Assembly: GCA_902577945.1 (NCBI GenBank)
Contig: CACHBB010000001.1
Span: 109,344-173,343, forward strand
Direction: 5' to 3'
DNA: 64,000 nucleotides
From: an uncultured Alphaproteobacteria bacterium
Lineage (GTDB): Bacteria > Pseudomonadota > Alphaproteobacteria > HIMB59 > GCA-002718135
Made by a program: the position numbers and the translations under genes. Below, in pieces: positions 7,863 to 62,734 of this stretch (within the stretch, counting starts at the first letter, position 1; each line of letters opens with the position of its first letter). The notes under the pieces are model-generated. The model was not told the origin of the DNA. It saw only the letters and a list, made by a program, of their open reading frames with translations, and did no database searches.

Positions 7863-8135
7863 CTAACCTCTGATATTTAATTTTTTAATAAGTTCTTCAT
7901 AATCAGATTTATTTTTTTTTGATAAATAATTAAGTAATTTTTTTCTTTTATTAACGAGAGCAACCAAACCTCTTTTAGAATGATTATCCTTAGTGTGAGT
8001 TTTAAAATGTTCTGTTAAACTTTTTATTCTCTCACTTAATACAGCAATTTGGATGCTGGTGGATCCAGTATCATTTGCATTTTTTGAAAATTCACTAATT
8101 AATTTTTTTTTGTTTTCTTTTGATATCGACATCAT
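7863..8135 (-). CDS. rpsO: 30S ribosomal protein S15
   Basis: DTGS..QIA, HFKTHTKDNHSKRGL; upstream of pnp; AGGAG RBS. Confidence 0.97.
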   Translation of the reverse strand: MMSISKENKKKLISEFSKNANDTGSTSIQIAVLSERIKSLTEHFKTHTKDNHSKRGLVALVNKRKKLLNYLSKKNKSDYEELIKKLNIRG

Positions 8136-8140
8136 TTCTC

Positions 8141-9046
8141 CTAAATTAATACTTTTTTTGGTTTGAACAAATTACGATTTAATTTGCCAATGGAAACAAT
8201 GTCCCCATTATGTGATAAAAAAAAATCTTTTTCTTCAGTTGTAATTAAAGAAATATTTTCTAGCTTTTTTTCATCGATTTTAATTGTTTTACCCATTGAG
8301 ATATCTTTAAGATCATTCTCATCAACAATTTCATAAGCCAAGATGTCGTCCAGCATAGAAACTGATGGTCTTACACAATTAATATCTGCAAGTCTTTTGC
8401 CTATTTTTAGAAGATCGTCCAGAAAAATCGAACTTTCTTTTGTAAATCTTCCAACCTTTAATCTTTCCAATGAAGAAATATGCCCAAAAGTACCTAAATC
8501 TCTAGCAAAATCTCTGGCTAGACTTCTAATATAAAACCCCTTACCACACTCAATTTCAAAAATTGAACTATCTTGATTATGTTTTATTAATTTTAAATTT
8601 TTAATATAAACATTTTTTGAATTAATCTCAAATTTCTTATTTTCTCTTGCAAGTTTGTAGGCTCTTTTGCCATTAATCTTAACAGCAGATACAGTTGGTG
8701 GTACTTGAGAAATAATTCCACTATAATTCTTTAAATTTGAAAGTATTTTATTTTGACTAGGAAAATTATCAGAGGTATGCAGTATGCTTCCACTTATATC
8801 ATCAGTTGAAGTTTGTGAGCCCCAAGTAATAGTAAATTTATATTTTTTTAGGTTCATTGCCACAAAAGGTATTAGTTTGGTTGTCTTTCCTAATGCCACA
8901 GGTAAAATCCCTTCTGCTAAAGGATCTAAAGTGCCGGCATGACCAATTTTTTCTATTGAAAAATTTTTTTTAATTTTTTTTATTGCTTGAAAAGAGGATA
9001 AGTTTTTTGGTTTATATAAATTAATCCAACCTTGATTATTATTCAT
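8141..9046 (-). CDS. truB: tRNA pseudouridine(55) synthase
   Basis: GHAGTLDPLAEG, SAVKINGKRAY, CGKGFYIRSL. Confidence 0.96.
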   Translation of the reverse strand: MNNNQGWINLYKPKNLSSFQAIKKIKKNFSIEKIGHAGTLDPLAEGILPVALGKTTKLIPFVAMNLKKYKFTITWGSQTSTDDISGSILHTSDNFPSQNKILSNLKNYSGIISQVPPTVSAVKINGKRAYKLARENKKFEINSKNVYIKNLKLIKHNQDSSIFEIECGKGFYIRSLARDFARDLGTFGHISSLERLKVGRFTKESSIFLDDLLKIGKRLADINCVRPSVSMLDDILAYEIVDENDLKDISMGKTIKIDEKKLENISLITTEEKDFFLSHNGDIVSIGKLNRNLFKPKKVLI

Positions 9047-20026: not shown

Positions 20027-21058
20027 ATGAAGTTATATAAATATATTTTCTTACTATTTTTAAAAAGCATTTCTTTTATCTTTTTGTTTATTTCTTTATC
20101 TCAAGCTTCTAATGTGAAGAATTCTGCCACCGTATTCATGTATCACAAATTTGGTGTTTCTAAATATCCTTCAACAAGTGTTACAATAAATCAGTTAGAA
20201 GATCATATTAAGGAATTCACAACAAATAATTATAATATTGTATCATTAGATTTTATTGTTGATACTATTATTAATGATGGCGATCTAGCTGATAATACTA
20301 TTGGTATAAGTGTAGATGATGCCGATAAATCTTTCTTTGAAGTTGGTTGGCCTTTATTTAAAAAAAATAATATACCGGTTACTCTGTTTGTAACAACAGG
20401 TACAATAGCAAACAATAATAAAAGTTATTTAAATTGGAATCAAATAAGAAAACTTAAGGAAGAAGGTGTAACCATTGGTGCGCATTCACATACTCATGCA
20501 CACATGCCTGATATCAGTATAGAAGATGTAAAGAAAGAGATCGAGCTATCAAATAAAATTTTTTTAAAAGAACTTGGAGAAATCCCTACTCTATTTGCAT
20601 TTCCATATGGTGAAACTAATACCGATATAATAAATTTAATTAAAGAATATAAATTTAAAGTTGCCTTTGGACAACACTCAGGAATAATAAATGAAACTTC
20701 AAATATGTATTATTTACCCAGATTTTCATTAAATGAAAAGTATGGTGAAATAGAAAGAGTAAAATTTGCTGCATCAGCAAAAGGTCTTGGAGTTTATGAT
20801 TTTATACCTATAAATCCATCTATATCTGAAAACCCTCCTTATATAGGATTCTCTCTTTTAGATGAAAAATTATCTATATCTCTAAATTGTTTTATATTTG
20901 ATATGAATGGTCAAGTTGAAAGAGAAATTTATAAATTTAATGAAAGAATAGAAATACGTCTTTCAAGAGAGTTAGCAAAAGGAAGATCAAGAATAAATTG
21001 TACTGCTAAAGATTCAAACGGGTTTTGGCGATGGTTTGGCCATCAATTTTATAATTAA
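20027..21058 (+). CDS. Exported polysaccharide deacetylase (CE4/NodB)
   Basis: Hydrophobic N-terminus; MYH, SVDD, HSHTH, FAFPYG, LPRF. Confidence 0.88.
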   Translation: MKLYKYIFLLFLKSISFIFLFISLSQASNVKNSATVFMYHKFGVSKYPSTSVTINQLEDHIKEFTTNNYNIVSLDFIVDTIINDGDLADNTIGISVDDADKSFFEVGWPLFKKNNIPVTLFVTTGTIANNNKSYLNWNQIRKLKEEGVTIGAHSHTHAHMPDISIEDVKKEIELSNKIFLKELGEIPTLFAFPYGETNTDIINLIKEYKFKVAFGQHSGIINETSNMYYLPRFSLNEKYGEIERVKFAASAKGLGVYDFIPINPSISENPPYIGFSLLDEKLSISLNCFIFDMNGQVEREIYKFNERIEIRLSRELAKGRSRINCTAKDSNGFWRWFGHQFYN

Positions 21059-28308: not shown

Positions 28309-29844
28309 TTAACAGCCTTTAAGCTCGTTCCCGAGATTACTAATCAACGTAAAGTAAAGTGACTTACCAGCATCAATGTTAGCACCTAAAGGATCAAAAA
28401 CTCCTGTTTTGATATTCATATCCTCAGCTATTGTTGTAATAATCTTTGGATTAAATTGAGGTTCAGAGAAAATACATTTTATTCCCTTATCCTTAATAAC
28501 ATCCTGAATATCAGCTATTTGCTTCGCACCAGGTAAAACATCAGTATTCAATGTTAATGCTCCTGCTGCTCTTACACCAAATCTTTCTTCAAAGTATTGG
28601 TAGGCGTCATGGAAGACAACAAATTTTGCATCAGAATTAATATCTGTACCAACATCACTAATAAGCTGATCTAAAGCTTTAATTGTTGCTTCAGCATTTG
28701 CTTCATATTTCTCTTTATTGGCAGGATCTAAATCACCTAACTCATGAGCTATTTCATGAACCATTTCTTTAGCATTCATTGGATCTAGCCAAATGTGAGC
28801 ATCAAATTCACCGTGTGCATGGCCGTGATGATCGTGATGATCGTGACCATCCATTTCTGGTTCTTGAGCAATTGGTTCTATGTCTGCACCAGAGGTATCT
28901 TTGAAGAAATGTTCATTTGCTTCAAACTCAAAAGGCATGTGCTCTGTGAAGAAAGCATATTTTCCATTCTCAGCTATTTCAACAGTAAACACAGTCATAT
29001 TTTGAGAATCATCAAAATTTAAAGAGTATGCAATCTCTTTAGCAACAAGAGTTCCACCATTTGTTTTTTTTGCGGAAGTTTTACTTTCTAAAAGTTCTTC
29101 AGCCGTTTCCTCAACTGCTTCAATATCATCAGCCGCTAGTAATACTAACTTCATAGCAGGGTCAGCATAATCGCCATCAACTTTAGCAGCAGACCACTTA
29201 TATGTTCCCGCTTTTAGATCAAATAATCCTGCCCATTCAAAAGCATGTGCACCGTGTGCGTGATCATCGTGGTCATCATGATCATCGTGATCATCATGGT
29301 CATCATGATCATCGTGGTCGTCGTGGTCATCATGATCGTCGTGGTCATCGTGATCATCATGGTCATCGTGATCATCATGATCGTCATGGTCATCATGATC
29401 ATCATGATCATCATGATCATCATGATCGTCATGATCGTCATGATCGTCATGGTCATCGTGATCGCCAAAAATAGACTCTTCTCTAAATTTTAATTTAGCA
29501 ATTGTTTCAACTTCCATAAACTCTACAACTTCAGCACTTTTTGCTATTGACTCAAGAGGTTCTTCTAATGATGTCTCAATACCCTCCCCAATCCAAAATA
29601 CTATATCTGCCTCTTCAAGCATTTTTGCATGAGATGGTTTCATTGTAAAACTATGTGGAGATATGCTTCCTTCAATTATAAGTCCAGGTTCACCAATTCC
29701 ACTCATAACATTAGAAATTAATGAATGAAGTGGTTTGATAGTTGTTACAACTTTTAATTCTGCTCTAGCAGATGCAGTTGCAGCAAGAATTCCTGAAAAC
29801 AAGATAATTTTAAAAACATGTAGAAAAAAATTCATTTGTTTCAT
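28309..29844 (-). CDS. znuA: Zinc ABC transporter substrate-binding protein with long His/Asp loop and inserted domain
   Basis: VVTTIKPL, SPH, DAHIWLDP, FHDAYQYFE, SEPQF; start moved to MKQMN at 29844 (AGGAAT upstream; ORF-track start lies inside the Zur box). Confidence 0.92.
   Translation of the reverse strand: MKQMNFFLHVFKIILFSGILAATASARAELKVVTTIKPLHSLISNVMSGIGEPGLIIEGSISPHSFTMKPSHAKMLEEADIVFWIGEGIETSLEEPLESIAKSAEVVEFMEVETIAKLKFREESIFGDHDDHDDHDDHDDHDDHDDHDDHDDHDDHDDHDDHDDHDDHDDHDDHDDHDDHDDHDDHDDHDDHDDHAHGAHAFEWAGLFDLKAGTYKWSAAKVDGDYADPAMKLVLLAADDIEAVEETAEELLESKTSAKKTNGGTLVAKEIAYSLNFDDSQNMTVFTVEIAENGKYAFFTEHMPFEFEANEHFFKDTSGADIEPIAQEPEMDGHDHHDHHGHAHGEFDAHIWLDPMNAKEMVHEIAHELGDLDPANKEKYEANAEATIKALDQLISDVGTDINSDAKFVVFHDAYQYFEERFGVRAAGALTLNTDVLPGAKQIADIQDVIKDKGIKCIFSEPQFNPKIITTIAEDMNIKTGVFDPLGANIDAGKSLYFTLISNLGNELKGC
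29260..29463 (-). repeat. Coding 9-bp tandem repeat, D-(HDD)x22-H
   Basis: 198 nt of CAY-GAY-GAY units (29263-29460) with synonymous variation. Confidence 0.95.
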
Positions 29845-29883
29845 AAAAGTATTCCTATTTGAATTATGTGTGTTAAATGAAGT

Positions 29884-29902
29884 AATGTTATAATATAACA
29901 TT
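29884..29902. promoter_or_regulatory. Zur box
   Basis: Perfect palindrome AATGTTATA-A-TATAACATT matching the proteobacterial Zur consensus, between divergent znuA and znuC. Confidence 0.92.
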
Positions 29903-32595: not shown

Positions 32596-32617
32596 GAATC
32601 TCTATTATTTAATTTTT

Positions 32618-32635
32618 GTTACAATTCTATTACAA
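32618..32635 (-). promoter_or_regulatory. Pho-box-like site upstream of phoB
   Basis: TTGTAAT-AGAA-TTGTAAC, then N10-TAATAG-N6-ATG. Confidence 0.7.
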
Positions 32636-39476: not shown

Positions 39477-40289
39477 ATGAAATTTGAAACTAACAAAAAA
39501 TATTATCGAACAATCTGGATATCAGATACACATTTAGGTACTAGTGGATGTAAAAGCTCAATGCTTTTAGAATTCTTGAGAGAGACAGATTCAGAATATT
39601 TATTCTTAGTAGGCGATATTGTTGATGGTTGGCGCATGCGTAAGAAAATGTATTGGCCTCAAGAACACAATGACGTTGTTCAAAAAGTTTTAAAGAAAGC
39701 GAAAAATGGAACTAAGGTTGTACTTATTCCAGGAAATCATGATGAGGTATTAAAAGATTTTACGAATTTTTCTTTTGGAGAAATTTCAATCAAAAATGAA
39801 GATACACATCAATTAGCTGATGGAAGGAAAGTACTGATTACACACGGAGATGAATTTGATGCTGTGATCATTAATGCGAGGTGGTTAGCCAAAGTTGGAT
39901 CAGCACTTTATGAATATTTACTAAAGTTAAATAATGTATTTAATTTTATTCGACGAAAGATGGGCTTGTCTTACTGGTCACTGTCTCAATATTTAAAAAA
40001 GAAAACAAAGCATGCAACCAACTTTATTAGTAATTTTGAGTTTGCTGTATCTGATAGAGCTAGAAGAGAAAATGCCGATGTTGTTGTATGTGGGCATATA
40101 CATAGGCCAGAAATAAAGGAATTAAATGGTGTTCTCTATTGTAATGATGGTGACTGGATTGAAAGTTGTACAGCACTTGTTGAAGATGAAATTGGCAATT
40201 TATCAATTCTTAATTGGCCCGAAGAAAGAGAAAATTTAAAATTAATTTCTTTAGAAGAAAGACGAAAAATAAAAGAGGATGCAGCCTAA
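39477..40289 (+). CDS. plcP: PlcP-type phospholipase C (metallophosphoesterase), copy 1
   Basis: ISDTHLG, GDIVDGW, PGNHD, HGD, CGHIH, NDGDW; coupled to a GT4 gene. Confidence 0.85.
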   Translation: MKFETNKKYYRTIWISDTHLGTSGCKSSMLLEFLRETDSEYLFLVGDIVDGWRMRKKMYWPQEHNDVVQKVLKKAKNGTKVVLIPGNHDEVLKDFTNFSFGEISIKNEDTHQLADGRKVLITHGDEFDAVIINARWLAKVGSALYEYLLKLNNVFNFIRRKMGLSYWSLSQYLKKKTKHATNFISNFEFAVSDRARRENADVVVCGHIHRPEIKELNGVLYCNDGDWIESCTALVEDEIGNLSILNWPEERENLKLISLEERRKIKEDAA

Positions 40290-41280
40290 AAAAATCGCAT
40301 TGATTAGTGATGCGTGGGTCCCTCAGGTAAATGGCGTAGTTACGACATTTCAGAGTATTATACCTATTCTAGAAAAAAAAGGTTTTGAAATTAAAATATT
40401 ACATCCTGCGATGTTTAATAATTTTAGTTATCCTAGGTACAAAGAAATAAAGATTTCTTACAACACTAAGAAAGTTACTGAAAAATTTTTTAAAGAATTT
40501 GATCCAGATATTGTTCATATAATGACTGAAGGTCCCGTAGGTTTTGCTGGTCGTAAGTACTGTCTTAAAAATAAACTACAATATACTTCTTCCTTTCACA
40601 CTCGTTTTCCTGATTATATTAAACAAAGAGCTTTTATCCCAAAGAGATTTACTTATTCCATATTAAGAAAACTACATAGTGATTCTGAAAGAGTTCTTGT
40701 TCCATCAGTTTCAATGCTAAATGAGTTAAAAAAATATAATTTTAAAAATTTAGTAGTTTGGAACAGAGGTGTTGATACAGAATTATTTAATCCAAATAAA
40801 AGAGATATAAACAGCAAGGATACTCAGCTGACTTATGTTGGAAGAGTAGCAATTGAAAAAAATATTGAAGAATTTTTAAAACTTAAAGGGAATTATAATA
40901 AAATAGTTGTGGGGGATGGTCCTGAATTAGAAAAATATATTAATAAGTATCCTGAAGTAAATTTTGTTGGTGTAAAAACTGGAGAAGAATTAGCGAAATA
41001 TTATGCAAACGCAGATGTGTTTGTATTTCCTTCTAAGACAGACACTTTAGGAAATGTAATACTTGAAGCATTGGCTAGTGGAACACCAGTTGCTGCATAT
41101 CCAGTAACTGGGCCTATAGATGTATTAACAGATGAGAAGATTAACACTTTAGATAATGACTTATTACAATCAATTAAAAAAGCGCTTAAAGTAAAAAGGG
41201 TTGATTGTAGAAATTTTACACTTAATTTAACATGGGATAAATGCGTGAAAGAATTTTTAGAATACATGGTAAACGTCTAG
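40279..41280 (+). CDS. agt: GT4 glycosyltransferase (Agt-like glycolipid synthase), copy 1
   Basis: DAWVPQVNGVV, TEGP, FHTRFP, GRVAIEKN, FPSKTDT..EALASG. Confidence 0.8.
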   Translation: MQPKKIALISDAWVPQVNGVVTTFQSIIPILEKKGFEIKILHPAMFNNFSYPRYKEIKISYNTKKVTEKFFKEFDPDIVHIMTEGPVGFAGRKYCLKNKLQYTSSFHTRFPDYIKQRAFIPKRFTYSILRKLHSDSERVLVPSVSMLNELKKYNFKNLVVWNRGVDTELFNPNKRDINSKDTQLTYVGRVAIEKNIEEFLKLKGNYNKIVVGDGPELEKYINKYPEVNFVGVKTGEELAKYYANADVFVFPSKTDTLGNVILEALASGTPVAAYPVTGPIDVLTDEKINTLDNDLLQSIKKALKVKRVDCRNFTLNLTWDKCVKEFLEYMVNV

Positions 41281-43408: not shown

Positions 43409-45508
43409 ATGATTAAAAATAATAATTCTTTTAACTATATTAATAGAGAATTATCTTGGCTTAAATTTAATGAAAGAGTCTTAAGTCAGACACTTGATAA
43501 TAAAACGCCATTATTAGAAAGAGTTAGGTTTCTATCAATAGCATTCTCTAATCTTGATGAATTTTTTATGGTTAGAGTGGCAGGATTAAATGTTCAAAAA
43601 TATTCACGAAATAAAAGTTTTGATGGATTAACACCACAACAGCAACTCAAGCTGATAGATAAAGAAACATCAAAGATGATTTCAGATATAAAATCAATAT
43701 GGATAGATTTACTAAAAGAGCTTTCAGAAAATAAGATCCATATAGATGTAGAAAAAACACTGAAAACAAAAGATAAAACATTTATAAAAAATTATTTAGA
43801 AGAAAATAATTGGGGGGTTTTAACGCCAATTATTATTGATCCATCTCACCCATTTCCTTTTATACCAAATAAAGAAACAACATTAGTATGTCGGTTAATA
43901 AATAATAAAAAAACTTTTTATGGAATACTGAGAGTGCCAGAGGGATTAGAAAAATTTATTAAATTACCTGGTAAAAAAATACGTTTTGTCTCTATGGAGA
44001 CAGCCTTGCTTATTTCTTTAAAAGAAATTTTCCAGTGTGATAGAGTTTTGGATAAAGGTGTTTTTAGACCAATTAGGAATAGTGAATTAGAATTAGGGGG
44101 TGAAGGAGAAGATTTATTTTTAGTATTTCAAAAAGCTATTTTTGAGAGAAGAAGACAAGAGGTAATAAGAATTGATTTTGATGAAAACATATCTAGTCAC
44201 TTAATTAAATTCATAAATAAAAAACTTAACTATAAGGATGTAAATACATATAAACTTCCAATACCCATTAATCTTTCTAGTATAGAGTCAATTTTTTTAA
44301 AAGATTTTAAAAAATTATTTTTTCCAAAATTTAAGGTACGATTTCCTGAAAGAATTAAAGATTTTAAAAATGATTATTTTAAAGCAATAGCGAATAAAGA
44401 TATTGTTATTCATCACCCATTTGAATCTTTTGAAGTAGTGACTCAGTTTATTGATCAAGCCGCAGATGATCCAAAAGTCTTATCAATAAAACATACTTTA
44501 TACCGAACAACTGATGACTCGCCGATAGAAGCAAGTTTAGTTAGAGCAGCACAAAAAGGGAAATTAGTAACTGTCATTATAGAGCTGCAAGCACGTTTTG
44601 ATGAAGAGCGTAACTTAAAATGGGCAAAAGAATTAGAATTAGCTGGAGCGCAAGTTGTTTTTGGCAATATTGATATGAAAACTCATGCAAAAATTACACT
44701 TGTAACAAGGAAGCAAATGAATTCTGTTGTAAATTACGCACATTATGGAACAGGTAATTATCACCCGAGAAATGCAAAAGTTTATATGGATTTATCTTAC
44801 TTCACCTGTGACAAAACATTAACAAATGATGCTGCAAAAATGTTTAATTATTTAACTAGTTATTCAGAACCAACAACAATAAAAAAAATAGTATATTCTC
44901 CAATAACTGCAAGAAACAAATTAAATGAACTAATTAGAAATGAAATTACAAATGCTGGAAAAAATAAACCATCTGGAATAGTATGTAAGTGTAATTCTCT
45001 TGTTGATAAACAAATTATTGATGAATTTTATAAAGCATCTCAAAAAAATGTAAAAATTGAATTGTTGATAAGAGGAATTTGCTCTCTAATACCTGGTAAA
45101 GAAAATCTATCGGAAAATATAGTTGTTAAAAGTATAATTGGTCGTTTTTTAGAACATACGAGAATATATTGTTTTTATAACGGTCATAAATTCCCTCATA
45201 GAAAAAATATCTTGTTTATTTCTTCTGCCGATTTAATGCAAAGAAATCTAGATAGGCGTGTTGAAACATTTATTCCTATTGAAAATGAAACTGTACATGA
45301 ACAAATATTAAATCAGATCTTAATTGCCAGTATGACAGATAATACAAATTCTTGGCAAATGTTAAGTAATGGCAATTATCAGAAAAAAGAAATATCAAGC
45401 AAAGAGAAAAAGTTTTCCTCTCACAATTTTTTTATCAAAAATCCAAGCTTGTCTGGGAGGGGTTCAGCAAAACTCAAATCTAGAGCTAAGTCTAATTTAA
45501 AAATTTGA
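43409..45508 (+). CDS. ppk1: Polyphosphate kinase 1
   Basis: NRELSWLKFNERV, NLDEFFMVRVAG, HPFPF, HHPFESF, RFLEHTR, SADLMQRNLDRRVE. Confidence 0.97.
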   Translation: MIKNNNSFNYINRELSWLKFNERVLSQTLDNKTPLLERVRFLSIAFSNLDEFFMVRVAGLNVQKYSRNKSFDGLTPQQQLKLIDKETSKMISDIKSIWIDLLKELSENKIHIDVEKTLKTKDKTFIKNYLEENNWGVLTPIIIDPSHPFPFIPNKETTLVCRLINNKKTFYGILRVPEGLEKFIKLPGKKIRFVSMETALLISLKEIFQCDRVLDKGVFRPIRNSELELGGEGEDLFLVFQKAIFERRRQEVIRIDFDENISSHLIKFINKKLNYKDVNTYKLPIPINLSSIESIFLKDFKKLFFPKFKVRFPERIKDFKNDYFKAIANKDIVIHHPFESFEVVTQFIDQAADDPKVLSIKHTLYRTTDDSPIEASLVRAAQKGKLVTVIIELQARFDEERNLKWAKELELAGAQVVFGNIDMKTHAKITLVTRKQMNSVVNYAHYGTGNYHPRNAKVYMDLSYFTCDKTLTNDAAKMFNYLTSYSEPTTIKKIVYSPITARNKLNELIRNEITNAGKNKPSGIVCKCNSLVDKQIIDEFYKASQKNVKIELLIRGICSLIPGKENLSENIVVKSIIGRFLEHTRIYCFYNGHKFPHRKNILFISSADLMQRNLDRRVETFIPIENETVHEQILNQILIASMTDNTNSWQMLSNGNYQKKEISSKEKKFSSHNFFIKNPSLSGRGSAKLKSRAKSNLKI

Positions 45509-45509
45509 A
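45464..45509 (+). repeat. Direct repeat A, copy 1 (ppk1 3' end)
   Basis: TCAGCAAAACTCAAATCTAGAGCTAAGTCTAATTTAAAAATTTGAA; 45/46 identical to 47784-47829. Confidence 0.93.
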
Positions 45510-45511
45510 AA

Positions 45512-45572
45512 TAGAATATAATCCCACTCACAACAATTGGACATAGCAGGAAGAAATAATATTGTGAGTGGT
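45512..45572 (-). ncRNA. Candidate Pho-regulated sRNA, copy 1
   Basis: Stem CCACTCACAA/TTGTGAGTGG (45524-45571), loop with TTTCTTCCTG; Pho-box-like promoter places +1 at 45572; 3' end approximate. Confidence 0.5.
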
Positions 45573-45714
45573 AAAGAGTATTTAAATTTTATTTTTTACA
45601 GCCGTGTTAATAGAATATTAAATTTTTATAAATTAAACTAATTTTTAAATTTCATTAATCTCAAATAAATTTTTTAGTTCTTTCAATTTGTTAAAAATTG
45701 AATCTTTTACTTCT
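45520..45714 (+). repeat. Degenerate direct repeat B, copy 1 (~195 bp: hairpin, promoter, arsC 3' remnant)
   Basis: Aligns by eye along its length with 50302-50497. Confidence 0.9.
45657..45714 (-). pseudogene. Remnant of arsC 3' end
   Basis: Near-identical to the last ~20 codons of arsC (50437-50497). Confidence 0.75.
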
Positions 45715-45734
45715 TAGTAACTATAATTTTAAAA

Positions 45735-46730
45735 TTAATTTTTTGCATTTACAATATTAGATAGAAATTGATTTGCACATCTATCCCAAGTAAATTGCAT
45801 TGCAAATTTTCTACAATCATTTCTATCAATCTTTAAGGCTTTTTTAAGTGAGTTTTCAATATCGTTATCAAGACTGTCAATTAATGAGTTTTTTAAAATA
45901 TCTTTAGGACCTGTTACTGGGTAAGCAGCCACTGGTGTTCCAGAGGCTAAAGACTCTAAAATTACATTTCCAAATGTATCTGTTTTGGATGGGAATACCA
46001 ACGCTTCAGCATTTGCATAATAATTTGCTAAGTCTTGACCTTTTTTCATCCCAACGAAAGATACATATGGATATTTATTTTGTAGTCGTTGTTTTTCTGG
46101 ACCATCTCCAACAACAATTTTATCCATCTTAGTTCTTATTTCTAAAAACGCTTCGATGTTTTTTTCTAATGAAACTCTACCAATGTAAACAATATACTTT
46201 TTCAGTCCTTTTCTTCTTTTTAAAGGATTAAATAATTCAGTATTAACTCCCCTTGACCAAATTTTAAGATTTTGAAATTGATATTTCGTTAATTCGTCAC
46301 GCATAGATACTGTTGGGACCAATACATTGCATGCATTTTTATGAAAATTTTTTAAAAAAGAGTACCCAATTATTTTTGGTATCATTATTCTTTGCTCTAA
46401 ATATTCTGGAAATCTCGTATGAAAAGAGGTTGTATATCTCAACTTATTATTCTCACAAAATTTTTTCCCCGCTATTCCAACTGGTCCTTCAGTAGCGATA
46501 TGTATAAAATCTGGATCAAAATTATTAAAAAATTTTTCTGTTATTTTTTTTGTATTAATTGCTAGTTTTATTTCTTTATACCAGGGATAGCTAAAATTAG
46601 TAAACATCATTGGGTGAAGTATGTCTATTTCATTCTTTTCTTTTAAAAATGGATTAATATGTTGGTATGTATTTACCACACCATTAACTTGGGGAAGCCA
46701 AGCATCGGTAATGATTGCTATTTTTTTCAC
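45735..46730 (-). CDS. agt: GT4 glycosyltransferase (Agt-like), copy 2, GTG start
   Basis: DAWLPQVNGVV, HIATEGP, FHTRFPEY, GRVSLEKN, TDTFGNVILES. Confidence 0.8.
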   Translation of the reverse strand: MKKIAIITDAWLPQVNGVVNTYQHINPFLKEKNEIDILHPMMFTNFSYPWYKEIKLAINTKKITEKFFNNFDPDFIHIATEGPVGIAGKKFCENNKLRYTTSFHTRFPEYLEQRIMIPKIIGYSFLKNFHKNACNVLVPTVSMRDELTKYQFQNLKIWSRGVNTELFNPLKRRKGLKKYIVYIGRVSLEKNIEAFLEIRTKMDKIVVGDGPEKQRLQNKYPYVSFVGMKKGQDLANYYANAEALVFPSKTDTFGNVILESLASGTPVAAYPVTGPKDILKNSLIDSLDNDIENSLKKALKIDRNDCRKFAMQFTWDRCANQFLSNIVNAKN

Positions 46731-47533
46731 ACTGCTACACTTTCTGGTATTTTGTTATATTTGTTGTGAAAAATTTTTTCTCTTTCAATCGACCAGTCAA
46801 TAAGAGATAATTGTCCCTCTTTATTTTCCACTAGCGCAGAACAACTCTCAACCCAATCACCATCATTGCAATATAACACTCCGTTTAATTTTTTTATAAC
46901 GGGCTTATGAATATGGCCGCACACAACAACATCGGCATTTGCTCTTTTAGCGCTATCAGATACGGCAAACTCAAAGTTAGAAATAAAATTCGTGGCTCTT
47001 TTTGTTTGATGTTTGAGAAATTGAGATAATGACCAATAAGACAGACCTAGTTTTCTTCTGACAAAATTTAGATAGTTATTCAACTTTAATATAAATTCGT
47101 ATAGGGATGACCCAATACTTGCCAGCCATTTAGCATTTATTATAACTGCATCAAATTCATCACCATGTAAAACAAGGGCATTTCTTCCATCAGCTAGTTT
47201 GTGTGTAAACTTATTTTTTATTGATATATTCCCTAGTGAAAAACTTGTGTAATTTTTTACAAGTTCGTCATGATTACCTGGGATAAATATAACTTTTGTA
47301 CCTTTTCTTGCTTTACGCAAAATCTTCTGGATAATGTCATTATGAGTTTGATGCCAATAAATTTTTTTTTTCATTCTCCATGCATCAATAATATCGCCAA
47401 CTAAAAATAAATATTTTGAATCTGTTGATCTCAAAAATTCAAGAAGCATTTCACTCTTGCTATTTTCTGTTCCAAGATGAAGATCAGATATCCATATAGT
47501 TCTATAATATGAAACTGATTGCTGATCTTTCAT
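46727..47533 (-). CDS. plcP: PlcP-type phospholipase C, copy 2
   Basis: ISDLHLG, GDIID, PGNHD, HGD, CGHIH, NDGDWVESC; paralog of 39477-40289. Confidence 0.85.
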   Translation of the reverse strand: MKDQQSVSYYRTIWISDLHLGTENSKSEMLLEFLRSTDSKYLFLVGDIIDAWRMKKKIYWHQTHNDIIQKILRKARKGTKVIFIPGNHDELVKNYTSFSLGNISIKNKFTHKLADGRNALVLHGDEFDAVIINAKWLASIGSSLYEFILKLNNYLNFVRRKLGLSYWSLSQFLKHQTKRATNFISNFEFAVSDSAKRANADVVVCGHIHKPVIKKLNGVLYCNDGDWVESCSALVENKEGQLSLIDWSIEREKIFHNKYNKIPESVAV

Positions 47534-47557
47534 TTTAATATAAAATAATAAAAATTT

Positions 47558-47586
47558 GTTAAAATTTTATTTCAATTACATTAACT
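47558..47586 (-). promoter_or_regulatory. Pho-box-like triple repeat upstream of plcP copy 2
   Basis: AGTTAAT-GTAA-TTGAAAT-AAAA-TTTTAAC-N10-TATTTT. Confidence 0.5.
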
Positions 47587-47783
47587 AATATGTAACGGTT
47601 TTTCTGTTATTAGGCTCAATCCTATTATTTGTGAATTTCTAGGAAATTCCAAAGAAAATTCATAAAAAATTAATATTACCGTTTGAATAAAAAGATTAAA
47701 AATAAACCTAAAATAAAAAAGAAAAATGATAAAGCGCTTAATAATTGATTCACTGACAGCGCAAGAATATAAAATTTAAGGAC

Positions 47784-47829
47784 TCAGCAAAACACAAATC
47801 TAGAGCTAAGTCTAATTTAAAAATTTGAA
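47784..47829 (+). repeat. Direct repeat A, copy 2 (orphan ppk1 3' end)
   Basis: 45/46 identical to 45464-45509. Confidence 0.93.
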
Positions 47830-47851
47830 GCTGGAATATATCCAGCTTCAA
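47825..47851. terminator. Hairpin downstream of the beta-helix gene
   Basis: TTGAAGCTGGA-ATATA-TCCAGCTTCAA. Confidence 0.7.
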
Positions 47852-47862
47852 GAATTTAGCTT

Positions 47863-49275
47863 TTAATTAATCGACTCAACGCCTTCTATATCAAATCCGT
47901 CTGCAATACTTGAAGAAATAGATCTGACAATACCATAACCTGAATCTTCTTGGACAAGTTCCATTCCAGTTCCATCACTATCATCATTATTTGATGTGGT
48001 AACATCTTGTGCCATGATCATAACATTGCCTGCTTCTTCTTCTTCGAAAACAAAACCTTTTCCACCATTGTCTTCAGATGATGAATTGATAACAAAAGCA
48101 CTTACATTTCCTGGACCTTCTTCAGAATGTTTATATCCATCATCTGTATTGCTTAGTGCAATTGTATCAATGATTGTCATGTTAATTGATCCTTCTTGTT
48201 CCTCATCAAAGTCAAGACCTTCATCCCAGTTACCAATAATTGTTGATCGAGTTACTTCAGCGTAGATATCTCCAGGACCTGCTTCATCCACATCAAATCC
48301 ATCGTCAACATCAATACCAAATTCATATTCTTCAACAAAACCACTGTCATAAAGACTTACTTCTCTTTCAAAACAACCATCATCTGGAGATCCAGTAATA
48401 GCAGGTGGTACAGCTGATTCAGTCATCTGACCATCTTCAAATTCACCTTCGTCTTCTTCAGGGAGATAGGCTTCCAAAATATCTGGGTGGCAATAATAAC
48501 CATTGTTATTAAATGATGTATTTTCAATCTGTGCAATAACTGAGCCAGCTTGACCTTCATCAAGCTCTACTCCATCTGCACCGACTCTCGTAAACGAAGA
48601 GTTTAAAATAGAAGCAATTAGATCTCCATTGTCTCTTTCATCTACACGCAGACCGTCGGCATCAAACATTCCTTGACCAACATTGTCAACAACTACATTA
48701 TTTAAGGAAACAGAAATAGAAGCTGGCGAACCGCCGCCTGCTCCTCCCCCGCCTGCACCACACGTTGCACCAACATCGCAATCGGATACATGAATCCCGT
48801 GGTTAGCAACATCATAAACCTTTACATCGTTAAGAACTAATTTAACCATTCCATATTGATTGTCTCTAACATTTAACAAAATTCCTTTACCACCTACACC
48901 ATCTAAATCAGCACGGTTTTCAATATTAAAACCTCCAGGACCTCTGAAATTTATTGAGTGTATAGACATATCACCGCCATTTGTTGATTCAAGAATTGTA
49001 AAATCATCCATAGCGTGAATTGTTTGGCCCTGACCATAAATAAATAATGGTGCTGTACTAGTATAACTTAAAGATGATAAAATTTTAATATTATTTCCAC
49101 TCTTTATATAAATTACATTTGCACCAGCCGACTTATTGGCATTTTCTATAGCTGCTCTAATAGATCCATCACCGCTATCCTTTGAATTAGAAACCACATA
49201 AGAATGTGCTAAAACAACATTAGTTAGAGAAACTATAGTACAGATAAGAAAAGTAATTATTAAATTATTTTTCAT
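47863..49275 (-). CDS. Secreted acidic protein, probable right-handed beta-helix, function unknown
   Basis: Signal peptide; VSNSKDSGDGSIRAAI cap motif; repeats of DG.x.DE..G about every 26-27 aa; start at MKNNL after AAGGAG. Confidence 0.75.
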   Translation of the reverse strand: MKNNLIITFLICTIVSLTNVVLAHSYVVSNSKDSGDGSIRAAIENANKSAGANVIYIKSGNNIKILSSLSYTSTAPLFIYGQGQTIHAMDDFTILESTNGGDMSIHSINFRGPGGFNIENRADLDGVGGKGILLNVRDNQYGMVKLVLNDVKVYDVANHGIHVSDCDVGATCGAGGGGAGGGSPASISVSLNNVVVDNVGQGMFDADGLRVDERDNGDLIASILNSSFTRVGADGVELDEGQAGSVIAQIENTSFNNNGYYCHPDILEAYLPEEDEGEFEDGQMTESAVPPAITGSPDDGCFEREVSLYDSGFVEEYEFGIDVDDGFDVDEAGPGDIYAEVTRSTIIGNWDEGLDFDEEQEGSINMTIIDTIALSNTDDGYKHSEEGPGNVSAFVINSSSEDNGGKGFVFEEEEAGNVMIMAQDVTTSNNDDSDGTGMELVQEDSGYGIVRSISSSIADGFDIEGVESIN

Positions 49276-49308
49276 AAAAATCTCCTTCATCATTATTAAA
49301 TATGAAGT

Positions 49309-49326
49309 ATTAAAAAATTGTTAAAG
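49309..49326 (-). promoter_or_regulatory. Pho-box-like site upstream of the beta-helix gene
   Basis: CTTTAAC-AATT-TTTTAAT-N10-TAATAA; shares 11 bp exactly with 50264-50274. Confidence 0.5.
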
Positions 49327-49382
49327 GCATGATAAAAAAAAGGGGTAAAAATTGAAATGAAAATTGTTTTTTTACAGACGTA

Positions 49383-50225
49383 TTAATTTAATATTGAGTT
49401 TTTATTACTAGGATCTAATCTATAAGTGCTATTCCTTAAAAATTTTGTAATCTCAATAAGATTGCCAATTTCTTTTATGGTTTCAAAGGGTATTCTTTGT
49501 CCAATATGAACATCAATTTTTTTTCCCATTCTTCTTTTAAGTTCATATATCATTAAAGAATATCGAAAGACTTGCCCAATTTTATCAGCAACATGAAAAA
49601 GTTCGCTATTTTGTCCTTCAAAAAAAATTGGGAGGACAGGTGATTGAGTTTTCATTATTATTTTTGAAGTAAATTGTTTCCATTCACGATCTATTGCTTT
49701 GATTCCTTTTTTTAATTTTGGTTTCGTTGAAACTGATCCTGATGGAAAAATGATTAGTGCCCCATTATTTCTTAAGTGTTCTTCGCATTCTTTACGTGCA
49801 GCGATATTATTTATTAAAGCATTTCTATTTTTTGAAAAATCAAGAGGAATAATTTTATTCTTAATAAGATCTGCTCCTTGTAAAACTTTATGCGTAATAA
49901 TTTTGTAATCTTGTCTAATTTTACTAATTAAAGAGCATATTGTAAGACCATCAGCTATTCCAAATGCATGGTTAGCGATTACTACAAGTTTGCCATTTTT
50001 AGGAATATTACTTTTAGAATGATAATGTGTCTGAACACGGAGACCTAATCTTTCAATTGCATCATGCCAAAAATTCTCTGGAGGTAAATTTTCTCTTAAA
50101 TAATCCTCATACAACTTACGTAACTTAATTTTACCCGTTCCCAATTCGGTTAATTGAATAATAATCTTTCCAACAGGATTAACTTCGGAGTTAGAAAAGG
50201 TAAGCGCTGGTTTATTAATTTTCAT
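49383..50225 (-). CDS. Lysophospholipid acyltransferase (PlsC family)
   Basis: ANHAFGIADG (Hx5D variant), IFPSGSVS, LPIFFEGQNS. Confidence 0.8.
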   Translation of the reverse strand: MKINKPALTFSNSEVNPVGKIIIQLTELGTGKIKLRKLYEDYLRENLPPENFWHDAIERLGLRVQTHYHSKSNIPKNGKLVVIANHAFGIADGLTICSLISKIRQDYKIITHKVLQGADLIKNKIIPLDFSKNRNALINNIAARKECEEHLRNNGALIIFPSGSVSTKPKLKKGIKAIDREWKQFTSKIIMKTQSPVLPIFFEGQNSELFHVADKIGQVFRYSLMIYELKRRMGKKIDVHIGQRIPFETIKEIGNLIEITKFLRNSTYRLDPSNKNSILN

Positions 50226-50256
50226 AAAATTTACTTTAAATTCTTAATTTTATAAT

Positions 50257-50274
50257 GTTAAACAATTGTTAAAG
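50257..50274 (-). promoter_or_regulatory. Pho-box-like site upstream of the acyltransferase
   Basis: CTTTAAC-AATT-GTTTAAC-N10-TAAGAA. Confidence 0.5.
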
Positions 50275-50292
50275 TACTCGAAAAAGGAGAAA

Positions 50293-50355
50293 TAAAAAAT
50301 TAATCCCACTCACAATTATTGGTAATTAGCAGGAGGAAATAATACTGTGAGTGGT
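50293..50355 (-). ncRNA. Candidate Pho-regulated sRNA, copy 2
   Basis: Stem CCACTCACA/TGTGAGTGG (50306-50354), loop with TTTCCTCCTG anti-SD, T-rich tail; predicted +1 at 50355. Confidence 0.55.
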
Positions 50356-50497
50356 AAGAGGCATTTAAATTTTATTGTTTACAGATAGATTAATGTAATA
50401 TTAAATTTTTATAAATTTAATTAATTTTTAACTTCATTAATTCTCAAATAAATTTTTTAGTTCTTTCAATTTATCAAAAATTGAATCTCTTACTTCT
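50302..50497 (+). repeat. Degenerate direct repeat B, copy 2
   Basis: Aligns with 45520-45714; includes the intact arsC 3' end. Confidence 0.9.
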
Positions 50498-50856
50498 CTA
50501 AATTTATCTAATTGGTTTGAACTAAAATGATCTGATGCCGGATCATCAAATGGTATTGAAAATATCTGAGCTTTGGAATTTAAAACTGGACATACCTCTT
50601 CTTTACAAAGCGTAAAAACAGTATTTAATTCATCTCTGAACTTATTGTCTAAACTTTCAAAATCTTTTGAATAATGTTTTGATATATCAATATCGATCTC
50701 ACTCATAACCAAAATTGCATTAGGATTGACTTCTTTGGGTACTGATCCTGCACTTTTAATAATGCAATTAGGATATAATTTTTTTGCAATTCCTTCAGCC
50801 ATTTGACTTCTTGCTGAATTAGCAACACACATAAAAAGAATATTTTTATTTTTCAT
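50437..50856 (-). CDS. arsC: Arsenate reductase (LMW-PTP/thioredoxin type)
   Basis: CVANSARSQMAE, TLC...CP, FDDP, FREVRD. Confidence 0.88.
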   Translation of the reverse strand: MKNKNILFMCVANSARSQMAEGIAKKLYPNCIIKSAGSVPKEVNPNAILVMSEIDIDISKHYSKDFESLDNKFRDELNTVFTLCKEEVCPVLNSKAQIFSIPFDDPASDHFSSNQLDKFREVRDSIFDKLKELKNLFEN

Positions 50857-51080: not shown

Positions 51081-51118
51081 ATTTTCTCCTTACTTCTATA
51101 AATTATAAATATTACACT

Positions 51119-62654: not shown

Positions 62655-62705
62655 TTAATCCCTCCGATTCAAATATAATATTAATCTAACACGTAGCTTC
62701 AAAGG

Positions 62706-62734
62706 GTTACAATTTTATTACGAAAATATTACTA
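62706..62734 (-). promoter_or_regulatory. Pho-box-like triple repeat
   Basis: TAGTAAT-ATTT-TCGTAAT-AAAA-TTGTAAC-N10-TACGTG. Confidence 0.7.

Follow-up and report, generated by a model that had tools for sequence, protein, structure and literature searches.

The element considered here is a short non-coding hairpin that occurs twice, on the minus strand, in a 64,000-nucleotide (nt) stretch of contig CACHBB010000001.1 from an uncultured alphaproteobacterium; "the window" means that whole stretch. The genome, that of an abundant ocean bacterium, is AT-rich, and the window carries a phosphate-starvation island containing phoB-phoU-pstBACS-phoR, ppx, sixA, ppk1, lipid-remodelling genes, arsC, and phnZ-like, phnW-like and ugp-like genes. 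Several of these names are our reading of Pfam hits, and the gene and start assignments are crude open reading frame calls, with some start regions wrong. The gene set is held in common with fGIp-H, the flexible phosphate island of the order HIMB59, which according to PMC10734472 includes pst, phoBR, ppk, ppx, sixA, aquaporin, phosphatase, and paralogous glycosyltransferase and LpxH-like genes. From this gene set and the division of the order into two families, both of which match that account, we infer that the island in the window is version H, in the GCA002718135 family of HIMB59. Below, G000 is the window's own genome, and C4, C6, C7 and C9 are its contigs. The features at the locus are as follows.

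43409..45508, plus strand: ppk1, the convergent neighbour of copy 1
45513..45572, minus strand: copy 1 of the candidate small RNA, with its stem at 45524-45571 and a CUUCC-type seed at 45548-45561; 3' end uncertain
45579..45623, minus strand: candidate promoter of copy 1; three Pho-like boxes of 11-bp period (45595-45623), N10, and a -10-like hexamer (45579-45584)
50295..50355, minus strand: copy 2 of the candidate small RNA, with its stem at 50306-50354 and a CCUCC-type seed at 50331-50344; 13 nt in common with an RNA candidate on contig C7
50362..50406, minus strand: candidate promoter of copy 2, with its boxes at 50378-50406 and the hexamer at 50362-50367
50437..50856, minus strand: arsC/LMW-PTP family gene; the element is always 3' of arsC or of an arsC remnant
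32596..32635, minus strand: phoB promoter, the reference geometry; two boxes, N10, hexamer, N6, ATG

The original prediction took the hairpins for a PhoB-activated small RNA with an anti-Shine-Dalgarno (anti-SD) loop. On re-examination, the coordinates of the hairpins at 45524-45571 and 50306-50354 are exact, as are those of the arrays upstream of them (45595-45623 and 50378-50406). After either array come N10, TAAAT(A/G) and N6, and then an A, which is position 45572 in one case and 50355 in the other. This N10-hexamer-N6 geometry recurs at the phoB promoter, where it ends on the phoB ATG. Two details needed amending. The second spacer of the array varies, as had been claimed for both, but the first does not (ATT is invariant in 16/16 aligned homologs), and the tail described as T-rich is only moderately so in copy 1. 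The hairpin is a single 10-12-bp stem with a 20-27-nt loop, and the seed, UAUUAUUUC(C/U)UCCU, lies within that one hairpin. Minus-strand folding energies are -17.2 (copy 1) and -15.1 kcal/mol (copy 2), with z of -3.6 and -3.7; 2/200 and 0/200 shuffles, respectively, fold equally well. Copy 1 starts 15 nt past the ppk1 stop.

The element is found 3' of arsC in 54/105 genomes of the genus, and the exact stem pattern in 50/105 (control, 0). Among close arsC loci, 50 of 52 have it downstream of arsC. A profile built from the close copies recovered four diverged copies 3' of arsC genes at 66% identity (L167-L170), and the model R1 recovered a fifth, L217 (64.5 bits), which was outside its training set. 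At these five diverged loci, where arsC is ~66% identical or closely related to those that are, the element faces ppk1 or aquaporin. It was not found in G025 or G136, and in G025, arsC and aquaporin are 13 bp apart with no hairpin between. Beyond that, the sister family gave only matches with E > 0.01, in 4/71 genomes; other Alphaproteobacteria gave 0/150 genomes, and the genomes behind the Pelagibacteraceae and SAR86 loci 0/4. Metagenome arsC loci, largely with unrelated arsC, had the element in 1/80 among the matches listed. Two weak R1 scores of 27-29 bits appeared among viral loci (80 of 120 scored), at L353 and L354 near 1492-1558, and are probably chance after pattern pre-selection. phoB is present in 49/54 of the element-bearing genomes of the genus, a count that reflects physical linkage.

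The pattern of change within the hairpin is in keeping with a structured RNA. Across 16 aligned copies, 97.5% of cells in the 10-bp stem are paired; two pairs have changed on both sides, and two are broken, in 1 and 3 of the 16 rows. All three one-sided changes yield G·U when read on the minus strand, where the plus strand would have A·C. For the L170 homolog, the fold of the minus strand has an energy of -13.3, vs -6.9 for the opposite strand. The compensatory and G·U-only changes favour the minus strand. Among close alleles, variation was judged against arsC fourfold sites, the samples compared being different ones (38 distinct element alleles, 33 arsC alleles). Variation is lower than at those sites in boxes 1 and 3, in N10, in the stems and in the 5' half of the loop, the values being 0.033 for the loop 5' half and 0.038 and 0.003 for the stems vs 0.073. 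It is higher in spacer 2, in the 6 nt that precede +1 and in the 3' half of the loop.

The loop has a counterpart elsewhere in the genome. The seed of the copy 2 loop, UAUUAUUUCCUCC, is also the invariant seed of a second hairpin RNA candidate, which we call the core RNA.

G000:C7 ~44256-44318 (L437:3256-3318), plus strand: core RNA candidate; a non-coding hairpin that follows a sugar ABC ATPase gene and its terminator

The core RNA candidate has a second C/U-rich motif, its own -10 box and a covarying stem. By DNA search its hairpin is present in 89/115 family genomes, and by the model R3 in 70/79 family genomes, 0/71 of the sister family and 0/150 other Alphaproteobacteria; Rfam gave nothing relevant at E up to 5. 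We aligned 51 loci from the 90 matched genomes (its own, the 30 best, and 20 chosen for divergence). The 13-nt seed is unchanged in 51/51 of them, and a TATAAT-like word precedes the stem by ~6-7 nt on the C/U-rich strand in most. In the stem of the core RNA, three pairs show compensatory change. In 88 kb, the best match of R3 is copy 2, at E = 0.63 and through the seed only, and homology of stem and loop is not evident. Because the stems are unrelated, we call the element and the core RNA siblings by seed. Under a simple model, 0.1 occurrence of the 13-nt identity would be expected genome-wide.

The genome contains the 12-nt seed only three times, namely in copy 2, in the core RNA (with the same polarity relative to its promoter) and, as its complement, in the ribosome-binding site (RBS) directly ahead of the ATG of an SBP_bac_5 (DppA-type) solute-binding protein gene on contig C9. 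That RBS and ATG, at G000:C9:3024-3038 (plus strand; L417), form a 15-bp Watson-Crick complement of the core seed, and the predicted pairing of the element with the same site is 13-14 bp. Of 300 shuffles, 1.0% could form 13 Watson-Crick pairs with some start region, or 1.3% with CCUCC held fixed. In genera g3 and g4 the core seed and the DppA-type RBS covary: the helix with the genome's own seed is 13 bp, vs at most 10 (G129) or at most 9 (G130) with other seeds. The small-RNA reading gains support from this, because it has a family-wide sibling with the same seed and a target RBS covarying with the core seed. Of the strong-SD genes, five were tested, chosen by eye from 21, and all five encode solute-binding proteins. 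The original prediction had named the RBS of rpsO as a site with which both loops could pair. Its position, 8131-8142, is correct, but the pairing is unremarkable, with 42 and 45 of 1,157 start regions pairing equally well or better, and rpsO is not supported as a target. Autoregulation through the DUF6552 RBS was also considered and rejected, since equal pairing is found at 34 (copy 2) and 197 (copy 1) of the 1,157. Near 1500 in L499 (G085), an amino-acid binding-protein gene, presumably AapJ-like, differs at one position of its RBS from the complement of the seed and is a possible second target. On the minus strand near 20873 of G000:C6, an intergenic hairpin with the loop UUCCUCCC precedes a terminator-like stem; it may represent a further anti-SD RNA or a reversed RBS.

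The upstream array keeps the spacing expected of a promoter. A Pho-like box lies 23-25 nt ahead of the stem, and the -10-like TA lies 12, 12, 12, 12, 12, 13 and 14 nt from it in the seven copies scored. The distance from the arsC stop to the box, at 59, 65 and 50 nt in three lineages, is variable, unlike the TA-stem spacing. From independent promoters of the island, the Pho box of this lineage is approximately TTGTAAC-N4-TTGTAAC, then N10 and TA. The N10 between last box and TA is kept in 7/7 element copies scored, as it is in most of 27 training sites, and PMC10294691 describes a strict spacing of the Pho box to the -10 element. Two matrices were used. The two-box matrix was built from those 27 sites in 71 upstream regions and scored 150,434 intergenic positions; the three-box matrix, tied, smoothed and trained without the element, scored 134,286. 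With the latter, the two copies rank 6 and 11, among phoB (4), plcP2 (7) and the acyltransferase (13), all three of which were in its training set. The proposed control by PhoB is moderately supported, the geometry and three-box ranks speaking for it and the fit to the two-box matrix being weak. The phoB gene itself is apparently leaderless, its predicted +1 falling on the A of the ATG, and for several genes of the island the predicted leader is a few nt long. High-scoring Pho-box-like sites elsewhere, at 62690-62723 (minus strand), G000:C1:174981 and G000:C2:27154 (two-box ranks 4, 5 and 7), are candidates for further members of the regulon. At G000:C4:40673-40790 (plus strand; L431), a Pho-like dyad (two-box rank 9) is followed by N10, TA, N6 and a hairpin with a T8 tail in a 169-nt convergent gap, an arrangement whose beginning resembles that of the element. 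That hairpin is not conserved in relatives, with weak, partial matches in 3/186.

A number of observations weigh against a PhoB-driven anti-SD small RNA. Under the two-box matrix, copy 1 ranks 118 among the 150,434 positions, copy 2 scores <5 bits and the diverged homologs 1.6-2.4 bits. The better ranks stem from a second, later-chosen model, in which the diverged homologs rank 37-172. The element's boxes depart from the lineage Pho consensus, and the final base of the last box is A or G in all element copies vs C or T in 27/27 training sites. As to pairing, 11-27% of shuffles reach a 14-bp helix once G·U is allowed, which is not significant, and shuffling the loops gives best duplex energies that are just as good (in 20% and 27.5% of 40 shuffles). 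No covariation with the target RBS is seen for the seed of the element itself, and in G132 the core seed has no advantage over others at its own RBS. Of 80 element copies, 34 have CCUCC and 46 have CUUCC, which pairs with GGAGG only via G·U. The anti-SD sequence is lost in L167-L169, and pairing is poor for L217 (-8.5 to -9.7 kcal/mol against the RBS of the window genome); L170 retains CCUCCU. The target RBS is identical in G085, which has the core RNA and lacks the element. The stem covariation is modest evidence because it comes from only about three lineages. No Hfq (PF17209) was detected in 5/5 genomes, four of them at least 90% complete, by a search whose control was positive in 5/14, and ProQ and CsrA were absent from 5/5 genomes. 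A role as a CsrA sponge is rejected for the lack of CsrA in those genomes. Finally, a U8 tract is found solely in L170 and L217, the majority allele being without a canonical U tract, and one RNA-library contig (44834-45661) crosses copy 1 and its promoter.

That contig belongs to evidence of limited resolution. The RNA contigs were assembled from 4 of 22 runs, and coverage gaps, including most of copy 2, carry no weight; being unstranded, the contigs give neither start nor strand. Two of them end in or at the hairpin, one at 45545 and one at 45574, the latter coinciding with the point where strain alleles begin to differ. These ends, together with the U8 tract of L170 and L217 and the fact that in single-copy loci the element always adjoins the stop codon of the convergent gene, are what a terminator would predict, or a 3'-protecting hairpin for arsC and the convergent ppk1 or aquaporin with an incidental loop sequence. 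We think it rather unlikely that this is the whole explanation. Clear terminators in this genome have loops of 3-14 nt, whereas the element's is 20-27 nt; between the arsC stop and the element are ~80 nt of spacer, in which the box array is conserved. An intrinsic-terminator scan called neither copy, the scanner having a loop limit, and the element lacks the combination of short GC-rich stem, 3-8-nt loop and adjoining U tract of such a terminator. Convergent gene gaps are at most 30 nt in 123/152 pairs of the genome; the element's gap is ~145 nt. The 13-bp arsC-aquaporin gap of G025 does without a hairpin, one contig reads through, and an incidental loop would hardly share 13 nt with the invariant seed of another RNA. 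The same anti-SD RNA could instead be made without PhoB, whether under another regulator, constitutively, or by cleavage from a DUF6552-arsC mRNA's 3' untranslated region (UTR). The departure of the boxes from the Pho consensus is in keeping with this, as are the most invariant upstream word, TAATATT, which lies across box 1 and spacer 1, the constant position 3' of arsC or its remnant, and the contig that spans the promoter. We consider this unlikely in view of the fixed box-N10-TA geometry that the element shares with the phoB, pstS, pstC, phoR, acyltransferase and plcP promoters, the intactness of copy 1 with no intact arsC upstream, and the confinement of the element to the large phosphate island.

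The remaining explanations place the function on the plus strand or in the DNA. As part of the ppk1 3' UTR, an RBS-like loop might sponge the core RNA in phosphate starvation and so lift repression of binding proteins; read on its plus strand, copy 2 is perfectly complementary to the core seed over 13 nt, and copy 1 begins close behind the ppk1 stop. Such a decoy is quite improbable, since most of the copies that face ppk1 hold the variant with an A·C mismatch to the core seed, the perfect allele mostly faces the same-direction acyltransferase, and the minus strand is favoured both by the variants in the stem and by the promoter. Element copies border insertions of 3, 4.8 and ~9 kb, as a recombination or protein-binding site in the DNA might do, and a plus-strand AGGAGG 9 nt ahead of a GTG might mark a short peptide gene. 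We give very little credence to either. The G·U-only changes indicate RNA, and the duplicated unit takes in the coding ends of arsC and ppk1. A plus-strand peptide is rejected: its frame has 13 codons in copy 2, three in L217 and none in L170, and the GTG is lost in 16/80 copies.

Of the original interpretation, what finds support is a conserved minus-strand RNA hairpin whose loop is anti-SD, together with a promoter-like element that keeps a fixed distance from it. We consider it probable that the element is a small RNA, and evenly balanced whether it is in particular a PhoB-driven sibling of the core anti-SD small RNA, acting in the manner of AbcR but without Hfq. On this reading, the element would be the gene of a ~55-65-nt trans-acting small RNA on the minus strand. 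In phosphate starvation, PhoB would bind the three boxes and transcription would begin at the base of the stem. The RNA is expected to fold into one 10-12-bp stem with an open loop of 24-27 nt, a structure backed by covariation. Its seed would pair across the Shine-Dalgarno sequence, the spacer and the start of the AUG of mRNAs with an RBS of the GGAGGAAAUAAU type, blocking ribosome loading, with the DppA-type solute-binding protein gene as the foremost target. The island sibling and the core hairpin RNA would thus have the same seed and the same targets under different promoters, and long, perfect pairing from an open loop may make Hfq unnecessary. The cell would benefit by making less of the abundant proteins that bind organic nutrients while its growth is limited by phosphate. 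We tentatively extend this, leaning slightly to the doubtful side, to an undescribed base-pairing small-RNA system of the streamlined, Hfq-less HIMB59 order, in which the family-wide core RNA would repress translation of solute-binding proteins by a long anti-RBS seed co-evolving with its target, and the exchangeable island would add a PhoB-driven sibling with that seed. That phosphate starvation would in this system lower organic-nutrient uptake proteins encoded outside the island is possible to about the same degree. Streamlined marine alphaproteobacteria have few canonical regulators, according to PMC10308909.

The presence of two copies is unsupported as a sign of selection; the duplicate appears to be a by-product of the insertion of a gene cassette. 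The features that bear on this are as follows.

45509..45714, no strand: left copy of a direct repeat, containing a non-coding remnant of the arsC 3' end (45655-45714)
45735..50225, minus strand: inserted cassette; GT4 glycosyltransferase, metallophosphoesterase, 476-aa protein and OlsF-like acyltransferase
47784..47852, no strand: ppk1 3'-end remnant, 57 bp, 93% identical, beside a canonical short-loop terminator (47824-47852)
49361..49405, minus strand: further array of promoter boxes, a partial third copy (83% across 46 bp) without hairpin, overlapping the acyltransferase 3' end
50290..50497, no strand: right copy of the direct repeat, containing the final 61 nt of the intact arsC

The two copies of the element are not independent, because both are part of this one 209-bp direct repeat (85.6% identical; 45509-45714 vs 50290-50497), which begins in the last ~60 nt of arsC. 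The 52 close arsC loci are arranged as arsC-element-ppk1 (18), with the acyltransferase inserted (2), with an ABC cluster inserted (2), or with two copies around the lipid cassette (28); the element is missing in one, and one is at a contig edge. A single copy between convergent arsC and ppk1 would be the simplest state, the second copy presumably having come with the cassette insertion. We take the cassette metallophosphoesterase to be PlcP-like. It and the glycosyltransferase (45735-47533, minus strand) are 70% identical to a second, inverted phosphoesterase-glycosyltransferase pair (39477-41280, plus strand). The acidic 476-aa protein (47863-49293, minus strand) has no Pfam hit and has its own Pho-like promoter. 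Its gene is among the best covered in the RNA contigs examined, where depth cannot rank genes, and L172 retains it as a 3' end only. At 51081-51118 of the window, two genes (220 and 350 aa) present in most relatives are absent between the phosphatase and DUF6552 genes. At 28309-29901 (plus strand) there is a zinc-binding-protein-like gene with a long HDD repeat.

No Rfam family reaches its gathering score in the window, and none relevant appears at E up to 10 in 45400-50600. The main text of PMC10734472 does not contain "sRNA", "small RNA" or "pho box". Neither RNA is described in the literature searched, including PMC10734472, PMC10308909, PMC2704228 and PMC5069720, supplements being outside the search and those of PMC5069720, like older lists of ocean small RNAs, possibly containing them; both are undescribed RNA candidates as far as that literature goes. 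Several known RNAs can be compared by their published descriptions. EsrL of E. coli is a reported PhoB-linked small RNA from an unrelated lineage; PhoB binding upstream of esrL was undetected in K-12 (PMC10294691). The cuckoo RNAs (PMC4615179) are alphaproteobacterial and have a C/U-rich anti-SD motif in a hairpin loop, as the element does. They consist of 2-4 adjacent hairpins, each with CCUCCUCCC, and membership is rejected since the element is one hairpin without it. PhoS of Bacillus (PMC11522486) is a 66-nt RNA that lies 3' of a gene; phosphate starvation induces it via the Pho regulator, and it pairs at an RBS region. The element would be like it in being a short RNA 3' of a gene, with predicted RBS-region pairing and a predicted phosphate link. 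Unlike the element, PhoS belongs to the PhoP system of a Firmicute and activates phoP translation; the two are compared by description, not sequence.

The closest parallel in the predicted mode of action is with AbcR1 and AbcR2 (alpha-r15) of the Rhizobiales, for which PMC4152367 and PMC8844928 give single-stranded anti-SD motifs predicted to block the RBSs of ABC solute-binding protein mRNAs, and name dppA among the AbcR1-dependent genes. The AbcR RNAs are 114-121 nt long with several hairpins and the seeds CUCCUCCC and UUCCCCUC; they are Hfq-bound, in tandem, and driven by LsrB and RpoH1. The element matches no AbcR model in Rfam and has neither of those seeds, nor a multi-hairpin architecture, nor an Hfq to act with. 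It is instead one ~60-nt hairpin with a long AU-rich seed reaching the AUG, and the siblings here are far apart, with unrelated stems and one of them on a flexible island. The likeness would lie in the predicted anti-SD pairing to solute-binding protein mRNAs, and in two siblings with a common seed and different promoters. If the reading is right, nutrient uptake is under AbcR-like control without a chaperone, by a pair of trans-acting anti-RBS RNAs, and a flexible phosphate island rewires core-genome transporters with 60 nucleotides. The prediction is specific, naming 5' ends, a seed, and a target RBS with natural compensatory variants.

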